This document shows positions 477-25,805 of a stretch of 45,484 nt of DNA, one piece after another. Every line of letters starts with the position of its first letter. Within the stretch, counting starts at the first letter, position 1. Both the position numbers and the translations under genes were made by a program. The stretch lies in assembly GCA_040754115.1 (NCBI GenBank), contig JBFMDD010000018.1, forward strand, positions 1 through 45,484, read 5' to 3'. A model generated the notes under the pieces. It saw only the letters and a program-made list of their open reading frames with translations, was not told where the DNA came from and made no database searches. This DNA is from a bacterium (lineage in GTDB: Bacteria; UBA9089; CG2-30-40-21; SBAY01).

Positions 477-540
477 GGAGTGACAGCACTTGCGCTGTCA
501 ATAACACCACAAGTGGTGTCACTCCAAGTGGTATCACTCC
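477..540. repeat. GGAGTG...CACTCC closed double-hairpin module, with a partial extra copy of the 3' arm
   Basis: GGAGTGACA (477-485) pairs with TGTCACTCC (517-525). Inside are two local hairpins, TGACAGC-acttgc-GCTGTCA and ACACCAC-aa-GTGGTGT. GTGGTATCACTCC (528-540) repeats the 3' arm. The same architecture occurs at 23176-23257. Confidence 0.5.
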
Positions 541-642
541 TCATTTCCCTGATATTAACTGATTGCTGATACCTGATGGCTGAACGCCTACATGTTTTTT
601 ACCACCAATTTCCACCTATTTCTAATTTCTACTATTTTTTTA

Positions 643-671
643 TTGATTATTATTCTTAAGTATGGTATAAT
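643..671 (+). promoter_or_regulatory. Sigma-70-type promoter for hisA (TTGATT - 17 nt - TGgTATAAT, extended -10)
   Basis: -35 TTGATT at 643-648, 17-nt spacer, -10 TATAAT at 666-671 preceded by TGG. It lies about 85 nt upstream of the hisA ATG. Consensus match only. Confidence 0.45.
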
Positions 672-754
672 TTAGTAACTGATAAATATTAAATATGGTA
701 ACTATTTAACCAGTAACCAGTTACCATTTAACCAATACATGGAGGTGAGGAGTT

Positions 755-1555
755 ATGTTAGTTATTCCAGCTATTGATTTAAAGGGAGGTAAGGTTGTAA
801 GGTTAGTTCAGGGTAAACCAGAGGAAGAGACTACTTATTCTACAAATCCAGTTGAAGTAGCTAATATGTGGGAAGAAAAAGGTGCAAAGCTGTTACATGT
901 AATAGATTTAGATGGAGCTATTTCAGGACGATTAGAAAATTTAGGTAAGGTAAAAGAGATTATCTCACAGGTTAAAATCCCGGTGCAGTTAGGTGGTGGA
1001 ATTCGTGATTTAAAAATGGTTAAAGATGCATTTAATATAGGTGTAAGTCGAATTATTATTGGCACAAAAGCTGCTATTGACCCAAATTTTACTCGCTCTA
1101 TTGTAGCACAATTCAAAGAGAAGGTAGTTGTTAGTATTGATGCTAAAGGTGGAAATGTAGCTGTGTGGGGTTGGCAGCAGATGACCGAGTATTCTGCGGT
1201 TACATTGGCACAAGAGATGAAACAAGTAGGTGTGCGGGAAATAATTTATACCGATATTAGCCGTGATGGGATGCTTGAAGGACCTAATTTTGATGCAATC
1301 CGTGACTTTACTCAAGCTCTTAAAATGAGAATTATTATCTCTGGTGGTATTTCCTCATTAGAGGATATTAAAAAATTGGTTCCATATAGTCGATATGGAG
1401 TAGTAGGTGTTATTATTGGTAAGGCACTTTATACGCAGGATGTGAAATTAGAAGATGCCATTGTTGTAGCCAAAGAAAATGTTCCAGTTCAACCTACTGT
1501 AGGTCCTCAGATAAAAAAGTTTCCTGCAAGAGAGGAATGGGATTTTAGATTTTAG
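755..1555 (+). CDS. hisA: ProFAR isomerase HisA, a (beta/alpha)8 barrel enzyme of histidine biosynthesis
   Basis: 266-aa ORF. The N-terminus MLVIPAIDLKGGKVVRLVQGK plus DLDGA, GGGIR and ISGGISS motifs are typical of HisA. RBS GGAGGTGAGG lies just upstream of the ATG. The last ~25 aa extend beyond usual HisA length. Confidence 0.92.
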   Translation: MLVIPAIDLKGGKVVRLVQGKPEEETTYSTNPVEVANMWEEKGAKLLHVIDLDGAISGRLENLGKVKEIISQVKIPVQLGGGIRDLKMVKDAFNIGVSRIIIGTKAAIDPNFTRSIVAQFKEKVVVSIDAKGGNVAVWGWQQMTEYSAVTLAQEMKQVGVREIIYTDISRDGMLEGPNFDAIRDFTQALKMRIIISGGISSLEDIKKLVPYSRYGVVGVIIGKALYTQDVKLEDAIVVAKENVPVQPTVGPQIKKFPAREEWDFRF

Positions 1556-1592
1556 ATTTATAAAAGTAACACAAACATCCTGCTTGTGTTAT

Positions 1593-1610
1593 AATCGACA
1601 ATCAAAAATC
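1593..1610 (+). repeat. Left copy of an 18-bp direct repeat (AATCGACAATCAAAAATC) flanking the PIN/antitoxin cassette
   Basis: 17/18 identical to 2356-2373 (AATCGACAATTAAAAATC), 763 bp downstream. Confidence 0.7.
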
Positions 1611-1654
1611 CGCAATTAATTAACACCCGGTTTAAACTTTATAGGTTATAATAA

Positions 1655-2134
1655 ATGAGAATATATTTTGACAATAGTTGTTTCAATCGTCCATTTGACG
1701 ACCAACAGCAACTTCGAATCAAACTTGAAACTGAAGCAAAATTGGATATTCAAAGACGGATTTTTCGAAAAGAAATTGACCTCGCATGGTCTTACATGTT
1801 GGATTTTGAAAATGAAGCAAATCCATTTAAACCAAAGAAGGTTTGCTATTAGAATGTGGAAGAACTATGCTTGAACCAAAGAAGGTTTGCTATTAGAATG
1901 TGGAAGAACTATGCTTGCGTTGATACAGATGAGACGAAGGAAATTATTGAAATAGCTGAACGGTTTCATCAAACAGGAATCAAAACTAAAGATTCTATTC
2001 ATTTGGCGTGTGCTATTTCTATGCAGTGTGAATATTTTTTAACAACTGATGACGAATTGTACAAAAAAGCATCGAGCATTAAGGAAATCAAGGTAACTGA
2101 ACCAATCTCTTTTATAAAGGAGGTATCTGGATGA
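1655..2134 (+). pseudogene. PIN-domain (VapC-like) toxin gene interrupted by an in-frame TAG created within a 44-bp tandem duplication
   Basis: N-half MRIYFDNSCFNRPFDDQQQLRIKLETEAKL...ENEANPF (1655-1852). C-half ...RRFAIRMWKNYACVDTDE...DSIHLACAISMQCEYFLTTDDELYKKA (1856-2134). Both are in the same frame, separated by TAG at 1850-1852. The acidic D/E residues and the TTDD motif fit a PIN fold. Confidence 0.7.
1830..1917 (+). repeat. Perfect 44-bp tandem duplication (2 copies) inside the PIN gene
   Basis: AACCAAAGAAGGTTTGCTATTAGAATGTGGAAGAACTATGCTTG occurs at 1830-1873 and again at 1874-1917 with no mismatch. Confidence 0.95.
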
Positions 2135-2185
2135 TTACTGATACAGAAATAAAGGAGGTATCTGGATGATTACTGATACAGAAAT
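2116..2185 (+). repeat. Perfect 35-bp tandem duplication (2 copies) spanning the PIN stop, the RBS and the start of the downstream gene
   Basis: AAAGGAGGTATCTGGATGATTACTGATACAGAAAT occurs at 2116-2150 and 2151-2185. It duplicates the AGGAGG RBS and the ATGA stop/start overlap. Confidence 0.95.
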
Positions 2186-2381
2186 AAAAATTAAAGGCAT
2201 TGAATCTCTTATAAGAACATTAGGTGAAGTTGAAGCTGAAAGATTCATTTCATTAGTGATGAGAGAACCATTTGATTATACTAAATGGCAAAAAACTCTT
2301 TGGATTGATAAGTCAATAGCAGAATTAAGTGCGCAAGCCATGCAATTTAGAAAAAAATCGACAATTAAAAATCAAAAATAA
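2166..2381 (+). CDS. Small PIN-associated protein, putative cognate antitoxin
   Basis: 71-aa ORF (MITDTEIKIKGIESLIRTLGEVEAERFISLVMREPFDYTKWQ...). Its start is coupled to the PIN stop by ATGA, and its AGGAGG RBS lies in the duplicated segment. The first duplicated ATG (2131) gives only a 12-aa peptide. Confidence 0.55.
   Translation: MITDTEIKIKGIESLIRTLGEVEAERFISLVMREPFDYTKWQKTLWIDKSIAELSAQAMQFRKKSTIKNQK
2356..2373 (+). repeat. Right copy of the 18-bp direct repeat flanking the PIN/antitoxin cassette
   Basis: AATCGACAATTAAAAATC, 17/18 identical to 1593-1610. It lies inside the last codons of the 71-aa ORF. Confidence 0.7.
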
Positions 2382-2523
2382 CTTAAGAGGATACCGCTGG
2401 GGGGAAGAAGAGAGCATAAAATTGTCTAAGTTATTGACATTAAAGAAATTCTCTCTTGGTACCCGCTTACAGGTTATTGGTGGTTAATTTTGACATTATC
2501 ACAAAAATAATCAGGAGGAAAAA

Positions 2524-3501
2524 ATGATAAAAGTAGCTGTGTTAGGTGCAGGTGGATTAGGAAAAGCAGCCGCTAAAATTATCGGTATAAAACAAGAGAT
2601 GAAATTAGTTGCTATTTGCGACCAATCAGGGTATGCTTTTAGCCAGGCAGGTATTAATTCTCTTGAAATCGAAAAAATTAAAATAGGCTCAACAGTAGGT
2701 AAAATGTCCAATGGAAAACTTTCTGATGACTCAATTGGAGAGATTGTAAAATTAGGTAATGAGATTGATGGGATATTTGTTGCATTACCTAATCTACCAA
2801 ATGAATTTATCCCAAATGTGATTAAACGATTTATTGATGCAGGATATAAAGGCGTATTTACAGATGCTTTAAAAAGGACTCAAGCAATGGAGTTGATATT
2901 TAAATTAGACGAAGACTTAAAAGCAACTCAAAGTACATATATTACTGGTGCTGGGGCTACACCAGGACTGTTGACTGCGGCTGCGGTAATAGCTGCTCAA
3001 TCATTTATTGAGGTTACGAAGGTGGATATTTGGTGGGGTGTAGGAATATCTAATTGGGAGGACTACAAGGCAACTATTCGTGAAGATATTGCTCATCTAC
3101 CTGGATTTACTTTAGAAAAGGCAAGGGCATTGTCAGACGATGAAGTGTCAAAATTATTAGATGACCGAAATGGAATATTAGAACTACATGAAATGGAACA
3201 TGCAGACGATTTGCTCCTACAAAAAGTAGGGGTAGTGGATTCACGAGATAAGGTAGAAGTAGGGGGAGTGATGGATACCCACAGTGCTAAAAAACCCGTT
3301 ACTACCACCATGACCTTGACGGGTAAAACATTTGATGGCAAGACCGCAAGCCATAAATTTATACTTGGTGATGAAACTACCATGGCAGCTAATGTAATTG
3401 GACCTGCATTAGGTTATCTTAAGCGGGCAAAGTGGCTCAATGAACATGGAATCTACGGTATCTACGGCTCTACTGAATTTATGCCTGCAGTGGTCAGGTA
3501 A
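2524..3501 (+). CDS. NAD(P)-binding Rossmann-fold oxidoreductase (saccharopine / diaminopimelate dehydrogenase-like); specific function unknown
   Basis: 325-aa ORF with N-terminal dinucleotide-binding motif KVAVLGAGGLGKAAA and an internal TGAGATPGL motif. AGGAGG RBS lies 6 nt upstream. The family assignment is tentative. Confidence 0.55.
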   Translation: MIKVAVLGAGGLGKAAAKIIGIKQEMKLVAICDQSGYAFSQAGINSLEIEKIKIGSTVGKMSNGKLSDDSIGEIVKLGNEIDGIFVALPNLPNEFIPNVIKRFIDAGYKGVFTDALKRTQAMELIFKLDEDLKATQSTYITGAGATPGLLTAAAVIAAQSFIEVTKVDIWWGVGISNWEDYKATIREDIAHLPGFTLEKARALSDDEVSKLLDDRNGILELHEMEHADDLLLQKVGVVDSRDKVEVGGVMDTHSAKKPVTTTMTLTGKTFDGKTASHKFILGDETTMAANVIGPALGYLKRAKWLNEHGIYGIYGSTEFMPAVVR

Positions 3502-15624: not shown

Positions 15625-15794
15625 GTAACCGTTCAGGTAGCTAAGAATTTTGCAGTTTATCAGGTTCAAGGTTCCAGGTTCAGGGTTCAAGGTTACTAAG
15701 CGATAAAGATTAAATATCAAATCCTGACAAACAGCTAAGCAAATCAACTCAGGAGCACACCCCCAACCCTGAATCTTGAACCTTGAACGGTTAC
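15625..15794 (+). mobile_element. MITE family A, uninterrupted 170-bp copy
   Basis: GTAACCGTTCAGGTAGCTAAG...(AGGTTCA-type heptamers x5)...CTTGAACGGTTAC. It serves as the empty-site reference for the nested copies at 10145 and 23869. Confidence 0.8.
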
Positions 15795-19517: not shown

Positions 19518-19548
19518 GTAATCGTTCAGGTGTAATGAAGGGAAAATA
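19518..19548 (+). mobile_element. Left-end fragment of MITE family C
   Basis: GTAATCGTTCAGGTGTAATGAAGGGAAAA matches the left end of the 343-bp element at 23049 (GTAACCGTTCAGGGTGTAATGAAGGGAAAAA). It is followed by (GTCTAAA)x2. No right end was found. Confidence 0.5.
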
Positions 19549-19623
19549 GAAAAGTCTGATGTCTAAAGTCTAAAGTCCAGTCTCTGAATCACAAATATCC
19601 TAAATTTAATTGGAGGAGCAAGT

Positions 19624-21072
19624 ATGAATTTAAAACAAGCTAATGAGTTAGCCTGGTTAAAGGAAAAGTATCCTGAGATGGATGTGGACAAGTTTGATCA
19701 AATTCGACAAAAATATCTAAATGGTGAATTGGAAGTAGTCTACGATGAGCAAATTCAATCGTTAAAGGGAACAAAGTATATGAGTTCCTATGAGGAATTG
19801 CCAGCCATTGAAGAACAAAATGGACTCCCTAAAGGCTACTTCCACAATAGAGGAGTTGAATTAGGAAGAAATAGCAAATTAGGTATGATAGTGTTAAATG
19901 GTGGTGTGGCTACATCGTATGAAAAGGAATTGGGCTATCGACCGACTAAAGGCATATTTCAAGCAATTATGTACACACCTATCAGTTTTATTGCTATCAA
20001 ACTCCATTCGATTTATCAATATCAAAAGGAAGGGATATTTATACCAACATATTTTATGAACAGTCCTGCTACTGATAAAGATACCAGAGACTACCTTGAA
20101 AAATTTAATAATTTTAATCTAAAAATCAAGCCAAAACATTTCTGCCAGGATTTAGGTTGGCCAAGAATCGACCCGCAAACAGGTAGCTTAATTACCCGCA
20201 AAAGTGGTAGAGTAAGCGTGGTTACCAAAGGGCATGGTGATGTGTATCAGGCATTTGATAAAAGTGGACTTTATGATGAATTTGTAGATAAAGGTGGAGA
20301 GGTGCTTTTAATTTGTAATATTGATAACTCAGAGGCAAAAATAGATATGGCTATTGCAGGTTACTTCTCATGGCTTAATGAAACACAAGGAGTACAAATA
20401 ATGTTTGAATCTGCCCCACAACTCCAAGATGACAAAAAGGGAGGAAAATGCGTATTGATGAAAAGACCTGATGGGAATATGGGGCCTGGAATATTAGAAC
20501 TAACTCGGATTTCACCCAACCTGCATGATGACTTGCAAAATATACAAGAATTTAATACCAATATGTGTTGGTTACATACCTCAATTGATAGAAGGTTATT
20601 TGATTTACCGTTCCGGGTGGTAAAAAAAACCCGCTTGAGTGATGTTGATGACCCGGAAATCAGTAAGAGTGGCGATGAGCAGGTAATACAATTTGAACAT
20701 GAGTCCCATAAACTAATGGAACTTGTAGAGTTAGGTCATTCACATGTGCTTTTAGTCCCACGAGATTTACGATTCTGGCCTAATAAATACTTCCATGACC
20801 AGATTAAAAAACAAAAACAATTAGTTGAAAAGTATAAAGAGCTGTATGATTGGATGTTTGAATTAAATCCCAAGGCTAATGAAAGTATCCTACAAGTCAA
20901 GGATGAATTGCTAAAGCAACTGGGGTTTGAAAAAGAAATTGTAACTTCGAGAATAAAGATTAGAGGATTAGAAGATAAGAGAGTAGAGAATCTTAGGTGT
21001 ATCGGGACAGTTCACTTTTGTTTGAAAGCTTGCGGAAAGAAAAGAGAGTTGAAATTGAAAGGTAGAAATTAG
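19624..21072 (+). CDS. UDPGP-family (UTP-hexose-1-phosphate uridylyltransferase-like) protein; the C-terminal ~40 codons read through repeat DNA
   Basis: Motifs VLNGGVATSY, KGHGDVYQAF and CNIDN resemble eukaryote-type UGPase/UAP family signatures. From about 20950 the ORF runs into heptamer and MITE-B-like sequence (..GTVHFCLKACGKKRELKLKGRN). Confidence 0.6.
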   Translation: MNLKQANELAWLKEKYPEMDVDKFDQIRQKYLNGELEVVYDEQIQSLKGTKYMSSYEELPAIEEQNGLPKGYFHNRGVELGRNSKLGMIVLNGGVATSYEKELGYRPTKGIFQAIMYTPISFIAIKLHSIYQYQKEGIFIPTYFMNSPATDKDTRDYLEKFNNFNLKIKPKHFCQDLGWPRIDPQTGSLITRKSGRVSVVTKGHGDVYQAFDKSGLYDEFVDKGGEVLLICNIDNSEAKIDMAIAGYFSWLNETQGVQIMFESAPQLQDDKKGGKCVLMKRPDGNMGPGILELTRISPNLHDDLQNIQEFNTNMCWLHTSIDRRLFDLPFRVVKKTRLSDVDDPEISKSGDEQVIQFEHESHKLMELVELGHSHVLLVPRDLRFWPNKYFHDQIKKQKQLVEKYKELYDWMFELNPKANESILQVKDELLKQLGFEKEIVTSRIKIRGLEDKRVENLRCIGTVHFCLKACGKKRELKLKGRN

Positions 21073-21208
21073 AAATTAGAAAATTGGCATAGAATTAGAA
21101 GTTTTTCTTTCCATTTTCATACAAATGGATATCCGAAAGAAACCATAGGAAAAACGATAAAATAAACCGTCCCGGTGTATCTTTTAACCAGACTACCTGA
21201 ACTGTTAC
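21004..21208 (-). mobile_element. Degenerate MITE B-like copy followed by a family-A-type right terminus (CCTGAACTGTTAC)
   Basis: GGGACAGTTCACTTTTGTTTGAAAGCTTGCGG...(GAAATTA)n...GGAAAAACGATAAAATAAACCGTCCC aligns with family B in reverse orientation. The terminal CCTGAACTGTTAC is at 21196-21208. Confidence 0.55.
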
Positions 21209-22306: not shown

Positions 22307-22410
22307 TTGATTTTTTCCTGTCAGAATAGAAACATTCACCGTTTACTTTTTTTAACTTTCTACTCTCTTTTATATATCGGCAAATTCGTTAGATTTCTTA
22401 ATAATTTTTG

Positions 22411-22439
22411 TTGACAATATGGTAATTTAGATGTAAAAT
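22411..22439 (+). promoter_or_regulatory. Promoter candidate for hisI (TTGACA - 17 nt - TAAAAT)
   Basis: -35 at 22411-22416 and -10 at 22434-22439. It is immediately followed by a complete MITE B, which would form the 5' UTR. Confidence 0.45.
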
Positions 22440-22602
22440 TATACTCAACACTGTTACAAATTGCGATTTTTAGAAACGGTTCACTTTAGCGTGAAAGCTT
22501 GCGGTTAAAAAATGGAGTTGAAATTGGAAAGTAGAAATTACATGGAAAACGATGAAAATGAACCGTCCCTAAATAACTCAGTTAATGGCAGTGTCCAGTA
22601 TA
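22440..22602 (-). mobile_element. MITE family B, reverse orientation (163 bp), in the hisI leader
   Basis: TATACTCAACACTGTTACAAATTGCGATTTTTAGAAACGGTTCACTTTAGCGTGAAAGCTTGCGG...CAGTTAATGGCAGTGTCCAGTATA is the reverse complement of the 10231 and 17409 copies. Confidence 0.8.
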
Positions 22603-22628
22603 TCTTTAATCAAGGAGATGGAAACAAA

Positions 22629-22955
22629 ATGGAGTTTAAATTTGATGAAAAGGGATTAATTCCAGCAATAATTCAAGATGAGGCGACCAAAGATGTTTTA
22701 ATGGTAGCTTATATGAATAAGGAATCTTTACAAAAAACATTAGAAACTGGGAAAACACACTTTTGGAGTCGGTCAAGACAAACATTATGGTTAAAAGGAG
22801 AGACTTCTGGACATTATCAATTAGTTAAAGAGATATGGTATGATTGTGATGAAGATACATTATTAGTTAAGGTAGAACAAATAGGTGATGTTGCGTGCCA
22901 TACGGGTGAGCGAAGCTGCTTTTATAGAAAATTATATCCTGCAACTGATGTGTAA
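22629..22955 (+). CDS. hisI: Phosphoribosyl-AMP cyclohydrolase HisI
   Basis: [34 protein letters not shown]...[12 protein letters not shown]...[39 protein letters not shown] upstream of ATG 22629. The 22512 start of the tracked ORF lies inside the MITE and is rejected. Confidence 0.9.
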
Positions 22956-22978
22956 TAATAGGATATTATGGAGGAGTA

Positions 22979-23852
22979 ATGACCGATATAATTCCAGTTG
23001 AAAAAATAGAGAATAGAATATTTCAGATAAGAGGCAAGGTAACCGTTCAGGGTGTAATGAAGGGAAAAATGGGAAATAATGGGAAAAGGGGGAATTTATT
23101 TTTATGTATAGGAATTTGATAGTTGTTCTGGTCATTCCCACATTATAGTCTTTGGAAAAGTAAGTTCCTCTTTTTGGAGTGCGGTAGCTTGCTACCGCTT
23201 TGAGCAAATCGCAAGCACGCTCTCGCCGTCCAAAGCGAAAGCAAGCTTTCGCACTCCACATTTTGAACATACTGATCACTGTTCACTGAACATACTGATC
23301 ACTGAAAATTAAAATTTGAAATGAAATCCTCTAATATTTTTCCTATTTTCCCTACTTTTCCATTTTTCCTTACTTACACCTGAACGATTACGAGGCAAGA
23401 AGGTAATGCTGGATAGAGATCTGGCAGAATTGTATGGCGTTTCAACAAAGGTTTTAAATCAAGCGGTTAAAAGAAATTTAAAAAGATTCCCGGAAGATTT
23501 TATGTTTAGGTTAACTAATGCTGAAAAATACAAGGTGGTCACAAATTGTGACCACCTTAGAGTATTAAAATTTTCACCACAATTACCGTTTGCTTTTACT
23601 GAGCAAGGTGTGGCAATGCTTTCAAGCGTTTTAAACAGTGAAAGGGCTATTATGGTGAATATTCAGATTATGCGTGCTTTTATAAACTTGTGAAGGATTG
23701 GTTTAACCTATGTTGAATTAAAACGAAAAATTGAAGCAATAGAGAAAAAATATGATGAACAATTTAAGGTTGTTTTCCATGCGATAAAGAAGTTATTAGA
23801 GCCAACACAAGTAGAAGGGAAAAAGAGGAAAATAGGATTTCGTAATAGTTGA
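22979..23852 (+). pseudogene. ORF6N-domain (KilA-N-related DNA-binding) gene, disrupted by a MITE insertion and an in-frame TGA
   Basis: Exon-like parts: MTDIIPVEKIENRIFQIRGK (22979-23048) and, after the [40 protein letters not shown]...[13 protein letters not shown]...[10 protein letters not shown], then TGA at 23691-23693. The same frame continues RIGLTYVELKRKIEAIEKKYDEQFKVVFHAIKKLL...GFRNS to the stop at 23850-23852. Confidence 0.8.
23049..23391 (+). mobile_element. MITE family C (343 bp), termini GTAACCGTTCAGGGTGTAA / TTACACCTGAACGATTAC, flanked by a perfect 8-bp TSD GAGGCAAG
   Basis: TSD copies at 23041-23048 and 23392-23399. Removing the element plus one TSD copy restores the ORF6N frame (IRGK|KVMLDRD). 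It contains a GC-rich double hairpin (23176-23257) and no credible ORF. Confidence 0.88.
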
Positions 23853-23868
23853 AAAGGGAATTATACTT

Positions 23869-23971
23869 GTAAGCGTTCAGCTAATAATTTTGCAGTTTAT
23901 CAGGTTCTAGGTTCAGGGTTCAAGGTTCAAGGTTCAAGGTTCAAGGTTCAAGGTTACTAAGCGATAAAGAT
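23869..23971 (+). mobile_element. MITE family A left half (GTAAGCGTTCAG...) with an expanded heptamer array (8 units); right half absent
   Basis: Collinear with 15625-15711 and 10145-10230, but with 8 rather than 5 AGGTTCA-type units (23902-23957). It is followed by a MITE B at the same internal junction as in the 10145 copy. Confidence 0.7.
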
Positions 23972-24267
23972 TATACTGGACACTGTCATTAACTGAGCTA
24001 TTTAGGGACAGTTTATTTTCATTTTCATCGTTTTTCACGGTGATTTCTTTTGGAAATTGGAAATTAGAAATTGGGGGACGGTTCATTTTCATCGTTTTTC
24101 CTGTGATTTCTTTTGGATTTTAGGAATTGTTCATGGAACGCTGAAATTGGAAATTAAACTTTCACTGCTCTCCCCAATTTCTAATTTCATATCCATTTTT
24201 TAACCGCAAGCTTTCACGCTAAAGTGAACCGTTTCTAAAATCGCAATTTGTAACGGTGTTGAGTATA
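23972..24267 (+). mobile_element. MITE family B copy with an internal partial duplication (296 bp)
   Basis: The termini TATACTGGACACTGTC ... GGTGTTGAGTATA are as in the other copies. The segment GGGACGGTT.ATTTTCATCGTTTTTC..GTGATTTCTTTTGGA occurs twice. Confidence 0.75.
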
Positions 24268-24323
24268 ATTATTTTTCGTGTAATTCGTGTCATTCGTGGT
24301 TCAAAAGTATTTTCAGGAGAATT

Positions 24324-25805
24324 ATGTATTATCCAACTAAAGAAGAATTCAAGCAAAAGGCAAAGCAGGGTAATTTGATACCTGTTTATAAAGAGATTTT
24401 AGGTGATTTAGAGACACCTGTTTCTGCATTTTATAAGATTAGTCAAGGTGGAAAATATGGCTATCTTTTAGAGAGTGTAGAAAAGGGAGAAAAATTAGGC
24501 AGATACTCGTTTTTAGGCGCTTCTCCTTCCATAATATTCAAATCCAAAGGTAGCCAGGGAGTGATTATCAAAGATGGGAAAGAAGAAATCTTCAATGTGG
24601 CTAATGACCCATTAATTCAACTTAAAAAATTAATGAGTCAATTTAAACCCGTTAAGGTAGATGGCTTACCAAGATTTTATGGAGGAGCAGTAGGCTACCT
24701 GAGTTATGATTATGTCAGGTTTATAGAAGAGTTGCCTGATAAAAATCCAGATAACCTTAATTTACCAGATACATTCTTTGTTATTACTGACACAATTCTT
24801 ATCTTTGACCATCTACTTCAAACCATAAAAGTAGTTTCAAATGCTTATGTAGATAAAGACCCAGATTTAGCTTATGAAAAAGCAATAGAACAAATTGAAG
24901 GGATAATCACTAAATTACGGCAATCGATACCAGTTCGAAATTCGAAATTCGAAATTCGAAATTCGAAATTCCCATTCCAATCTAACTTTACCAAAAATGG
25001 ATTTGAGAAAATAGTAAAAGGTGCAAAGGAATATATCAAAGCGGGAGATATAATTCAGGTTGTTCTTTCGCAAAGACTTACTGGAAAGATTCATTCAGAG
25101 CCGTTGACTGTATATCGGGCGTTAAGAAGAATAAATCCTTCGCCGTATATGTTTTATCTAAAATATGATGAGGTAAATATTGTCGGTTCTTCTCCAGAAC
25201 TTTTAGTAAGATTAGAAGAAGGAGAGGTAGAAACCCGGCCTATTGCAGGGACAAAGCCTCGTGGCATCAATGAAAAAGCAGATGATAAGTACGCTAAAGA
25301 GTTGTTAGCAGACCCAAAGGAAAATGCAGAACATATCATGTTAGTTGACCTGGGTCGCAATGATATTGGGAGGGTGTGTGAGTATAAATCAATTCATCTG
25401 CCTGAATTTATGGTTATAGAGAAATACTCACATGTAATGCACATTGTTACCTCAGTAAAAGGGAAACTCCTACCTCAATATGATGCCTTTAGTTTAATAA
25501 GAGCTTGTTTCCCCGCAGGAACAGTTACGGGTGCTCCTAAAGTGAGGGCTATGGAGATAATCAATGAATTTGAACCTGAACGAAGAGGCCCTTATGCTGG
25601 ATGTGTGGGCTATTTTAGCTTCTCAGGTAATTTAGATACCTGTATTACTATTAGAACTATTGTTATTAAAGATGGTAAAGCCTACCTGCAAGCTGGAGCA
25701 GGAATTGTGGCAGATTCTAACCCAGAAACTGAATATTATGAGACGATGAATAAACTTAAATGCTTAATTGATGCTGTTGAATTAGCAGAGAAAGGACTAC
25801 AATAG
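24324..25805 (+). CDS. trpE: Anthranilate synthase component I TrpE
   Basis: LLESVEKGEKLGRYSF, AGDIIQVVLSQR, INPSPYMFYL, RPIAGT, GTVTGAPKVRAMEII and AGAGIVADS motifs. AGGAGA RBS. No trpG or trpD follows. Confidence 0.93.
   Translation: MYYPTKEEFKQKAKQGNLIPVYKEILGDLETPVSAFYKISQGGKYGYLLESVEKGEKLGRYSFLGASPSIIFKSKGSQGVIIKDGKEEIFNVANDPLIQLKKLMSQFKPVKVDGLPRFYGGAVGYLSYDYVRFIEELPDKNPDNLNLPDTFFVITDTILIFDHLLQTIKVVSNAYVDKDPDLAYEKAIEQIEGIITKLRQSIPVRNSKFEIRNSKFPFQSNFTKNGFEKIVKGAKEYIKAGDIIQVVLSQRLTGKIHSEPLTVYRALRRINPSPYMFYLKYDEVNIVGSSPELLVRLEEGEVETRPIAGTKPRGINEKADDKYAKELLADPKENAEHIMLVDLGRNDIGRVCEYKSIHLPEFMVIEKYSHVMHIVTSVKGKLLPQYDAFSLIRACFPAGTVTGAPKVRAMEIINEFEPERRGPYAGCVGYFSFSGNLDTCITIRTIVIKDGKAYLQAGAGIVADSNPETEYYETMNKLKCLIDAVELAEKGLQ
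24934..24968 (+). repeat. Heptanucleotide array (TTCGAAA x5) in frame inside trpE
   Basis: Counted directly. It is translated as VRNSKFEIRNSKF, in the linker preceding the conserved ...KEYIKAGDIIQVVLSQR block. Confidence 0.92.

Follow-up and report, generated by a model that had tools for sequence, protein, structure and literature searches.

Insertion sequences of the IS66 family carry inverted repeats of 20-30 bp that begin with GTAAGCG, and are flanked by 8-bp direct repeats (PMC11946415), much as the original prediction for the locus described here had stated (repeats starting GTAA, 8-bp duplications). Terminal repeats described for the family include GTAAGCGTCCGG.. and GTAACCGTCCGGGCA, the latter in ISPsy43 and ISPa97 (PMC12888890). 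In the ISBst12 group, ISDge4 encodes a single 449-aa transposase and transposes actively; its terminal repeats are GTAACTGCTCAGCA, and its direct repeat is 8 bp long (PMC12898284). Bacterial MITEs, such as MITEPsy1 of Pseudomonas syringae, the Correia elements and BOX/RUP, are short, non-coding, hairpin-forming elements with terminal repeats and a target duplication of fixed length; they occur in many copies and occasionally disrupt genes, and insertion of MITEPsy1 into genes with loss of function has been reported (PMC3189936). We found no description of an IS66-derived MITE in the open-access literature. The ISBst12 group is itself poorly characterised.

Here we describe a non-coding MITE with IS66-type ends that interrupts an ORF6N gene in a 45,484-nt stretch of DNA (the window; contig JBFMDD010000018.1) belonging to the metagenome-assembled genome (MAG) of an uncultured bacterium (2.86 Mb in 365 contigs, 34.7% G+C, 94% complete). 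We consider it very probable that an accessory ORF6N gene has suffered both a MITE insertion and a nonsense codon, and that the MITE belongs to an IS66-type superfamily probably moved by a single-ORF IS66 transposase.

The element shares with the bacterial MITEs named above all of the properties listed for them. It differs in its parent, which would be IS66/ISBst12, in having several unrelated cores behind one pair of ends, and in a 25-nt end whose conservation spans three taxonomic families within a small candidate phylum. With the ISBst12 group it shares ends that begin GTAAC, as in ISDge4, and the 8-bp duplication, and single-ORF elements of 1.5-1.7 kb in related genomes have ends identical to the first 13 nt of the MITE. 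Unlike those elements, however, the MITE is 353 bp long and lacks a transposase, is unrelated to them beyond ~15 nt, and has no cognate element in the MAG. The three-gene IS66 elements (tnpA-tnpB-tnpC; IS66, IS679, ISPsko1) likewise have GTAAGCG/GTAACCG repeats and 8-bp direct repeats, but there is no TnpB_IS66 (PF05717) here, and the cognate elements in relatives have a single ORF. Of the features by which an IS66/ISBst12 element is known, we found GTAA(G/C)CG ends, the 8-bp duplication and cognate full-length elements in related genomes, but no full-length element in the MAG itself that has these ends and an IS66 DDE transposase. Lastly, the interrupted gene resembles other genes for ORF6N-domain proteins (PF10543, a KilA-N-related DNA-binding domain) in encoding the full domain and the C-terminal helix of homologues of 170-180 aa; it differs from them in being split by a MITE, in carrying a nonsense codon, and in standing alone between hisI and trpE.

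An ORF6N gene split by a MITE and a nonsense codon

The MITE follows codon 20 of the ORF6N gene and is bounded by a perfect 8-bp duplication (Table 1). Read from the sequence, it is 10 bp longer than the 343 bp first proposed; of the two duplicate copies as first placed, the right one stands, and the left one, put at 23041-23048, lies 10 bp further upstream. The terminal repeats are complementary at 12 of 13 positions and, if small indels are allowed, extend to ~50 nt; the family consensus of the right terminal repeat is GTAAGCGTTCAGG, as opposed to GTAATCGTTCAGG in the ORF6N copy. When the whole MITE is folded it forms one long hairpin (-60.8 kcal/mol; z = -7.7 against shuffles). Its longest internal ORF is 47 aa and it contains no transposase gene, in agreement with its original description as a non-autonomous MITE. 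Indeed, it is short (below ~600 bp), has terminal repeats and a duplication of fixed length, and is present in many dispersed copies. A search of positions 22400-24500 against Rfam gave sub-threshold chance matches only.

Table 1. Features of the ORF6N locus and of comparison loci in related genomes (window positions, unless a locus in another genome is named).
Feature	Position	Strand	Basis or remark
hisI	22512-22955		flanks ORF6N gene
5' fragment of ORF6N gene, ATG and codons 1-20, MTDIIPVEKIENRIFQIRGK	22979-23038	+	as assembled, continues into the MITE, stop at 23119
Target-site duplication, left copy, 8 bp, GAGGCAAG	23031-23038		sequence
MITE, 353 bp	23039-23391		GAGGCAAG on either side
Left terminal inverted repeat, GTAACCGTTCAGG	23039-23051	+	imperfect repeat reaches ~23086
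Central hairpin of MITE, 28-nt arms, 86% complementary	23175-23258		conserved in family members
Right terminal inverted repeat, CCTGAACGATTAC on plus strand, GTAATCGTTCAGG on minus strand	23379-23391	-	repeat pairing
Target-site duplication, right copy, 8 bp, GAGGCAAG	23392-23399		sequence
3' part of ORF6N gene, codons 21-170 and terminal TGA (23850-23852)	23400-23852	+	in frame with 22979-23038 after excision
In-frame TGA nonsense codon	23691-23693	+	homologue alignment
Left end of the family A MITE that follows (broken or nested), GTAAGCGTTCAG	23869-23880	+	16 bp past ORF6N stop codon
trpE	24324-25805		flanks ORF6N gene
L001, variant ends GTAACTACTCAGG	485-2221		
L002 (G007), 1505 bp, variant ends GTAACCGTTCACA	1339-2843		intact 476-aa transposase
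L003 (G003:C198, same taxonomic family), 1563 bp, GTAACCGTTCAGGTA at both ends	893-2455		one IS66-type ORF with two stops
L004, variant ends GTAACTATTCAGC			
L029 (JBFLXN010000248.1), right end GTAACCGTTCAGGTAGG			intact 472-aa transposase, 96% identical to that of L003
L034, full-length IS66-type element	655-2181		
L047 (G003:C189), hisI-trpE junction	1790-1960		
L044 (G005:C195), hisI-trpE junction			

We reconstructed the empty site in silico by joining 22979-23038 to 23400-23852, which drops the MITE together with one duplicate, so that ..AGATAAGAGGCAAG is directly joined to AAGGTAATG.. The resulting frame of 513 nt (170 codons) reads through ..IFQIRGK| and contains one internal TGA. The rejoined product matches the Pfam ORF6N profile over its full length (positions 1-86 of 86; 108.1 bits, cut-off 27.8), whereas for the split gene the match of the downstream fragment is limited to positions 12-86 (92 bits). 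The original prediction that removal of the element and one duplicate restores the ORF6N N-terminus is thus borne out. Moreover, residues 1-167 of the rejoined product align colinearly with intact homologues of 170-181 aa in relatives, the best of which is 67% identical, and in the homologue alignment the residues at the junction agree with the motif of the ORF6N family.

The internal TGA is codon 118 of the rejoined frame. Among seven aligned full-length homologues the corresponding residue is Arg in six and Lys in one, in the context ..MRAFTKL[R/K].., and the TGA cuts off the normal C-terminal helix in the same frame, as had been proposed from the sequence. TGA closes 235 of 1041 long ORFs in the genome (23%) and is therefore an ordinary stop, such that we read the codon as a nonsense mutation; on the same count we reject an alternative genetic code or TGA recoding. 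As assembled, the ORF6N gene has no intact frame, being split by the MITE and further interrupted by the TGA, and is a pseudogene. We are highly confident, taking this together with the rest of the explanation favoured here, that the gene has been inactivated twice, in a case of ordinary gene decay.

Single genomes have as many as 12 matches to the multi-copy ORF6N family, some of which, in relatives, are fragments with internal stops. In this MAG there is one intact paralogue (contig C244, 3718-4206). A third, heavily degraded remnant lies on contig C272 (770-1003) and carries a frameshift, a TGA and a TAG; directly before it is a gene that we take, by eye, to be RhuM-like. An apparent second stop at the same place as codon 118 in this C272 paralogue proved to be a TAG in a frameshifted remnant. 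Separately, the coding region of the interrupted gene contains a perfect 13-nt palindrome, AAGGTGGTCACAA / TTGTGACCACCTT, with a 1-nt spacer (23531-23559; ..KVVTNCDHL..), which a scan scored as terminator-like on the minus strand.

The spacer between hisI and trpE is 1368 bp here (22956-24323) and holds the ORF6N pseudogene and two MITEs. G003 and G005, which belong to the same taxonomic family, lack an ORF6N gene at this place: only ~20 and ~95 bp separate their adjacent hisI and trpE. The ORF6N gene is therefore itself an accessory insertion at a conserved junction. In two further genomes (G002 and G004), different genes follow hisI. No exact protein match to hisI, to trpE or to the ORF6N fragment was on record for another assembly, and scans of JGI metagenome contigs for the exact patterns of the gene start and of the 25-nt end returned no match.

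A repeat superfamily with common ends

A search for GTAA[C/G]CGTTCAG with up to one mismatch recovered 11 matches in the window, where 0.15 would be expected, and 347 in the 2.86-Mb MAG. Of these 347 ends, 78 point towards a contig end that is no more than 450 bp away, and the repeats therefore appear to fragment the assembly. When each left end was paired with the nearest right end at most 600 bp away, 73 pairs resulted, 25 of which are flanked by perfect duplications of 8 bp, as compared with 0-2 for every other length between 2 and 12 bp; shifting the right flank by 10 bp as a control left no duplications of 5 bp or longer. Tabulating the target-site duplications of the other copies, a check proposed at the outset, thus yielded 24 sites beyond the one in the ORF6N gene, whereas a lack of such sites would have spoken against the original prediction. 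Since ends of the form GTAA[C/G]CGTTCAG together with 8-bp duplications are an IS66 signature, we assign the MITE superfamily to the IS66 family.

With the MITE as a BLAST query, 201 segments were found over the genome, and we estimate the superfamily at about 175-200 copies. Clustering separates at least five multi-copy families that have unrelated cores but common GTAA[C/G]CGTTCAG ends. The largest of them, which includes the ORF6N copy, has 26 complete members (247-446 bp), and perfect duplications flank 13 of these. Family A elements have the same ends, as the original prediction stated; they are seen, for example, at 15625-15794 and in the left end that begins at 23869. Most copies of the superfamily are intergenic or lie at gene edges, and the ORF6N copy is among the few that are clearly intragenic. 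Elsewhere in the window, solo or degenerate MITE ends at 19518-19555 and 21197-21208 (GTAATCGTTCAG on the plus strand and GTAACAGTTCAG on the minus strand) flank a UDP-glucose pyrophosphorylase-like gene (19624-21072); they belong to separate elements rather than to a composite transposon.

The insertion had been called fairly recent. The perfect duplication fits that description, but the closest complete copies are only 94.6-96.6% identical to the ORF6N copy at aligned positions, and the ORF6N copy has a 57-bp internal deletion relative to the ~409-bp family consensus. On these comparisons, the insertion is young enough for a perfect duplication to have survived, yet the copy is not brand-new, and "recent" should be taken only in a relative sense. 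In the family alignment (window 23264-23304 for the ORF6N copy), the 57-bp stretch that sister copies have and the ORF6N copy lacks includes an array of heptamers, with GAGCAGT-like units, that pairs with the ACTGATCACTG repeats; the length of this array varies among MITE copies.

Single-ORF IS66-type elements in related genomes

According to the original prediction, the MITEs are mobilised by an IS66-like transposase encoded elsewhere, and a tnpA/tnpB/tnpC partner was to be sought. The MITE ends are indeed of the IS66 type, but the 94%-complete MAG contains no match to either DDE_Tnp_IS66 (PF03050) or TnpB_IS66, and tblastn with the transposases of three relatives detected no IS66 transposase in it, intact or remnant. 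Repeats often go unassembled in MAGs, so that a transposase missing from the MAG does not equate to absence from the organism. Pairs of ends 1.3-3.5 kb apart, which we considered as possible autonomous elements, enclose host genes only.

IS66-type elements with the same ends are found in relatives, in single-ORF form. IS66 transposase matches were obtained in 17 of the 41 genomes searched, all within the phylum of the window. Within that phylum, 23 of 25 genomes have the 13-nt end, in up to ~580 copies each (~560-580 in G003 and in G005), as opposed to a single copy in one of the 16 genomes outside it; the co-occurrence of end and transposase comes from related genomes, and hence is not independent evidence. 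The IS66-type elements of the relatives all have one ORF and a length of 1.5-1.7 kb, which makes them ISBst12-like rather than of the tnpA/B/C type. The transposase of L029 scores 293 bits against the NCBIfam IS66 family transposase model (cut-off 180), and those of L003 and L002 score ~135 bits against Pfam DDE_Tnp_IS66, with L002 also matching zf-IS66. The original prediction would have been undermined by a partner with unrelated ends; instead, IS66-type elements in relatives are bounded by GTAACCGTTCAGG.

The MITE resembles the full-length elements in the outer 13-15 nt only, and on these grounds we reject it as a simple internal-deletion derivative of L003, L029 or any other element found. 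None of the four full-length elements for which both flanks were compared (L001, L002, L003 and L034) has an 8-bp duplication, possibly as a result of old insertions or of recombination between copies. An exact copy of GTAAGCGTTCAGG lies inside the IS66-type transposase coding region of L003 (1273-1285; ..PVSVQAVNQ..) and is missing from the 96%-identical L029; it may have arisen by chance or be an internal pseudo-end. In L029, an IS630-like element with two ORFs (181 and 195 aa) has inserted at 275-1380 and cuts the IS66-type element, whose transposase is intact, at its left end.

Proposed mechanism and alternatives

We propose that an accessory gene of ~170 aa, encoding an ORF6N (KilA-N-like DNA-binding) protein, sat between hisI and trpE; that the MITE inserted after codon 20, duplicating the 8-bp target GAGGCAAG; and that the Arg/Lys codon 118 became TGA, where either lesion could have come first. 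The likely mobilising enzyme would be the DDE transposase of single-ORF (ISBst12-like) IS66 elements acting in trans, from a copy that we presume was once present in the host organism, or is present but unassembled. From the match between ends, an IS66-type transposase would probably recognise the MITE ends and move the MITEs in trans.

An alternative possibility is that the ORF6N gene is alive and makes a truncated DNA-binding product of 95 aa from the ATG at 23406, with a right-arm promoter of the MITE perhaps driving it and with the TGA marking the end of a shorter but tolerated product. That ATG does open a 95-aa frame, which still scores 92 bits for ORF6N, and a promoter-like site within the MITE (23287-23315) reads outward; nonetheless, we regard this as very unlikely, since promoter-like sites are not enriched over shuffled sequence (six against 5.2 expected), the product would be without the first 11 profile positions and without the C-terminal helix kept in all seven aligned full-length homologues, and decay appears common in this gene family, judging by the fragments with internal stops in relatives. 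It is extremely improbable that the lesions are an assembly artefact, with a misplaced repeat copy or a consensus error at the TGA, and that the real gene is intact, although the TGA taken by itself could reflect an error of sequencing or of the consensus, or an allele of a minority. The fragmentation of the MAG and the proximity of so many ends to contig ends indicate that the repeats disturb assembly, but a misjoin would not yield an exact 8-bp duplication together with exact restoration of the frame, the 8-bp rule holds at the 24 other sites, and the ORF6N copy, being unique in sequence and at most 96.6% identical to any complete copy, is not a collapsed repeat.

If the resemblance to IS66 ends were coincidental, another family that duplicates 8 bp, such as ISL3 or IS256, could move the MITEs. 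We consider this highly improbable. It would account for the lack of an IS66 transposase in the MAG and for the small extent (13-15 nt) of the identity between the MITE and the full-length IS66-type elements. As candidate partners, however, IS256 has no match in the genome, ISL3 is represented by one sub-threshold fragment with two stops, and none of the five DDE_Tnp_1 transposase genes is bounded by GTAA[C/G]CGTTCAG ends. By contrast, relatives contain several independent IS66-type elements whose ends agree with those of the MITEs over 11-15 nt, and published IS66 ends start GTAAGCG or GTAACCG (PMC12888890, PMC11946415). We therefore favour a single-ORF IS66 transposase as the mobilising enzyme.

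The locus is a clean, datable case of accessory-gene erosion in an uncultured lineage, although the process is ordinary and involves no new kind of system. It also ties a very abundant and previously unassigned repeat superfamily to single-ORF IS66/ISBst12 elements. For annotation, the superfamily matters as a set of repeats that appear to break assemblies; for mechanism, hundreds of natural substrates with conserved ends of 13-25 nt define what an ISBst12-type transposase probably recognises.

A broader reading, which we put forward tentatively and consider rather unlikely, is that the GTAA[C/G]CGTTCAG elements form a phylum-wide, long-lived superfamily of ISBst12/IS66 MITEs that persists, and may still be moving, without a cognate transposase, dependent on copies that arrive horizontally. 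In that case no IS66-derived MITE system would have been described before this one, and the MITEs would have outlived their partner. The data that bear on it are the hundreds of copies per genome, the several unrelated cores, the distribution of the 25-nt end and the 96%-identical intact transposase of L029 in a MAG labelled Ca. Edwardsbacteria. With two mismatches allowed, the 25-nt left end of the ORF6N-copy family is present in nine of the 25 species representatives of the phylum, in three taxonomic families, a distribution that points to long persistence or to spread under constraint. In the 2.9-Mb MAG that hosts L029, there are only two GTAA[C/G]CGTTCAGG ends, and this scarcity suggests either horizontal arrival of the insertion sequence or a mis-binned contig.
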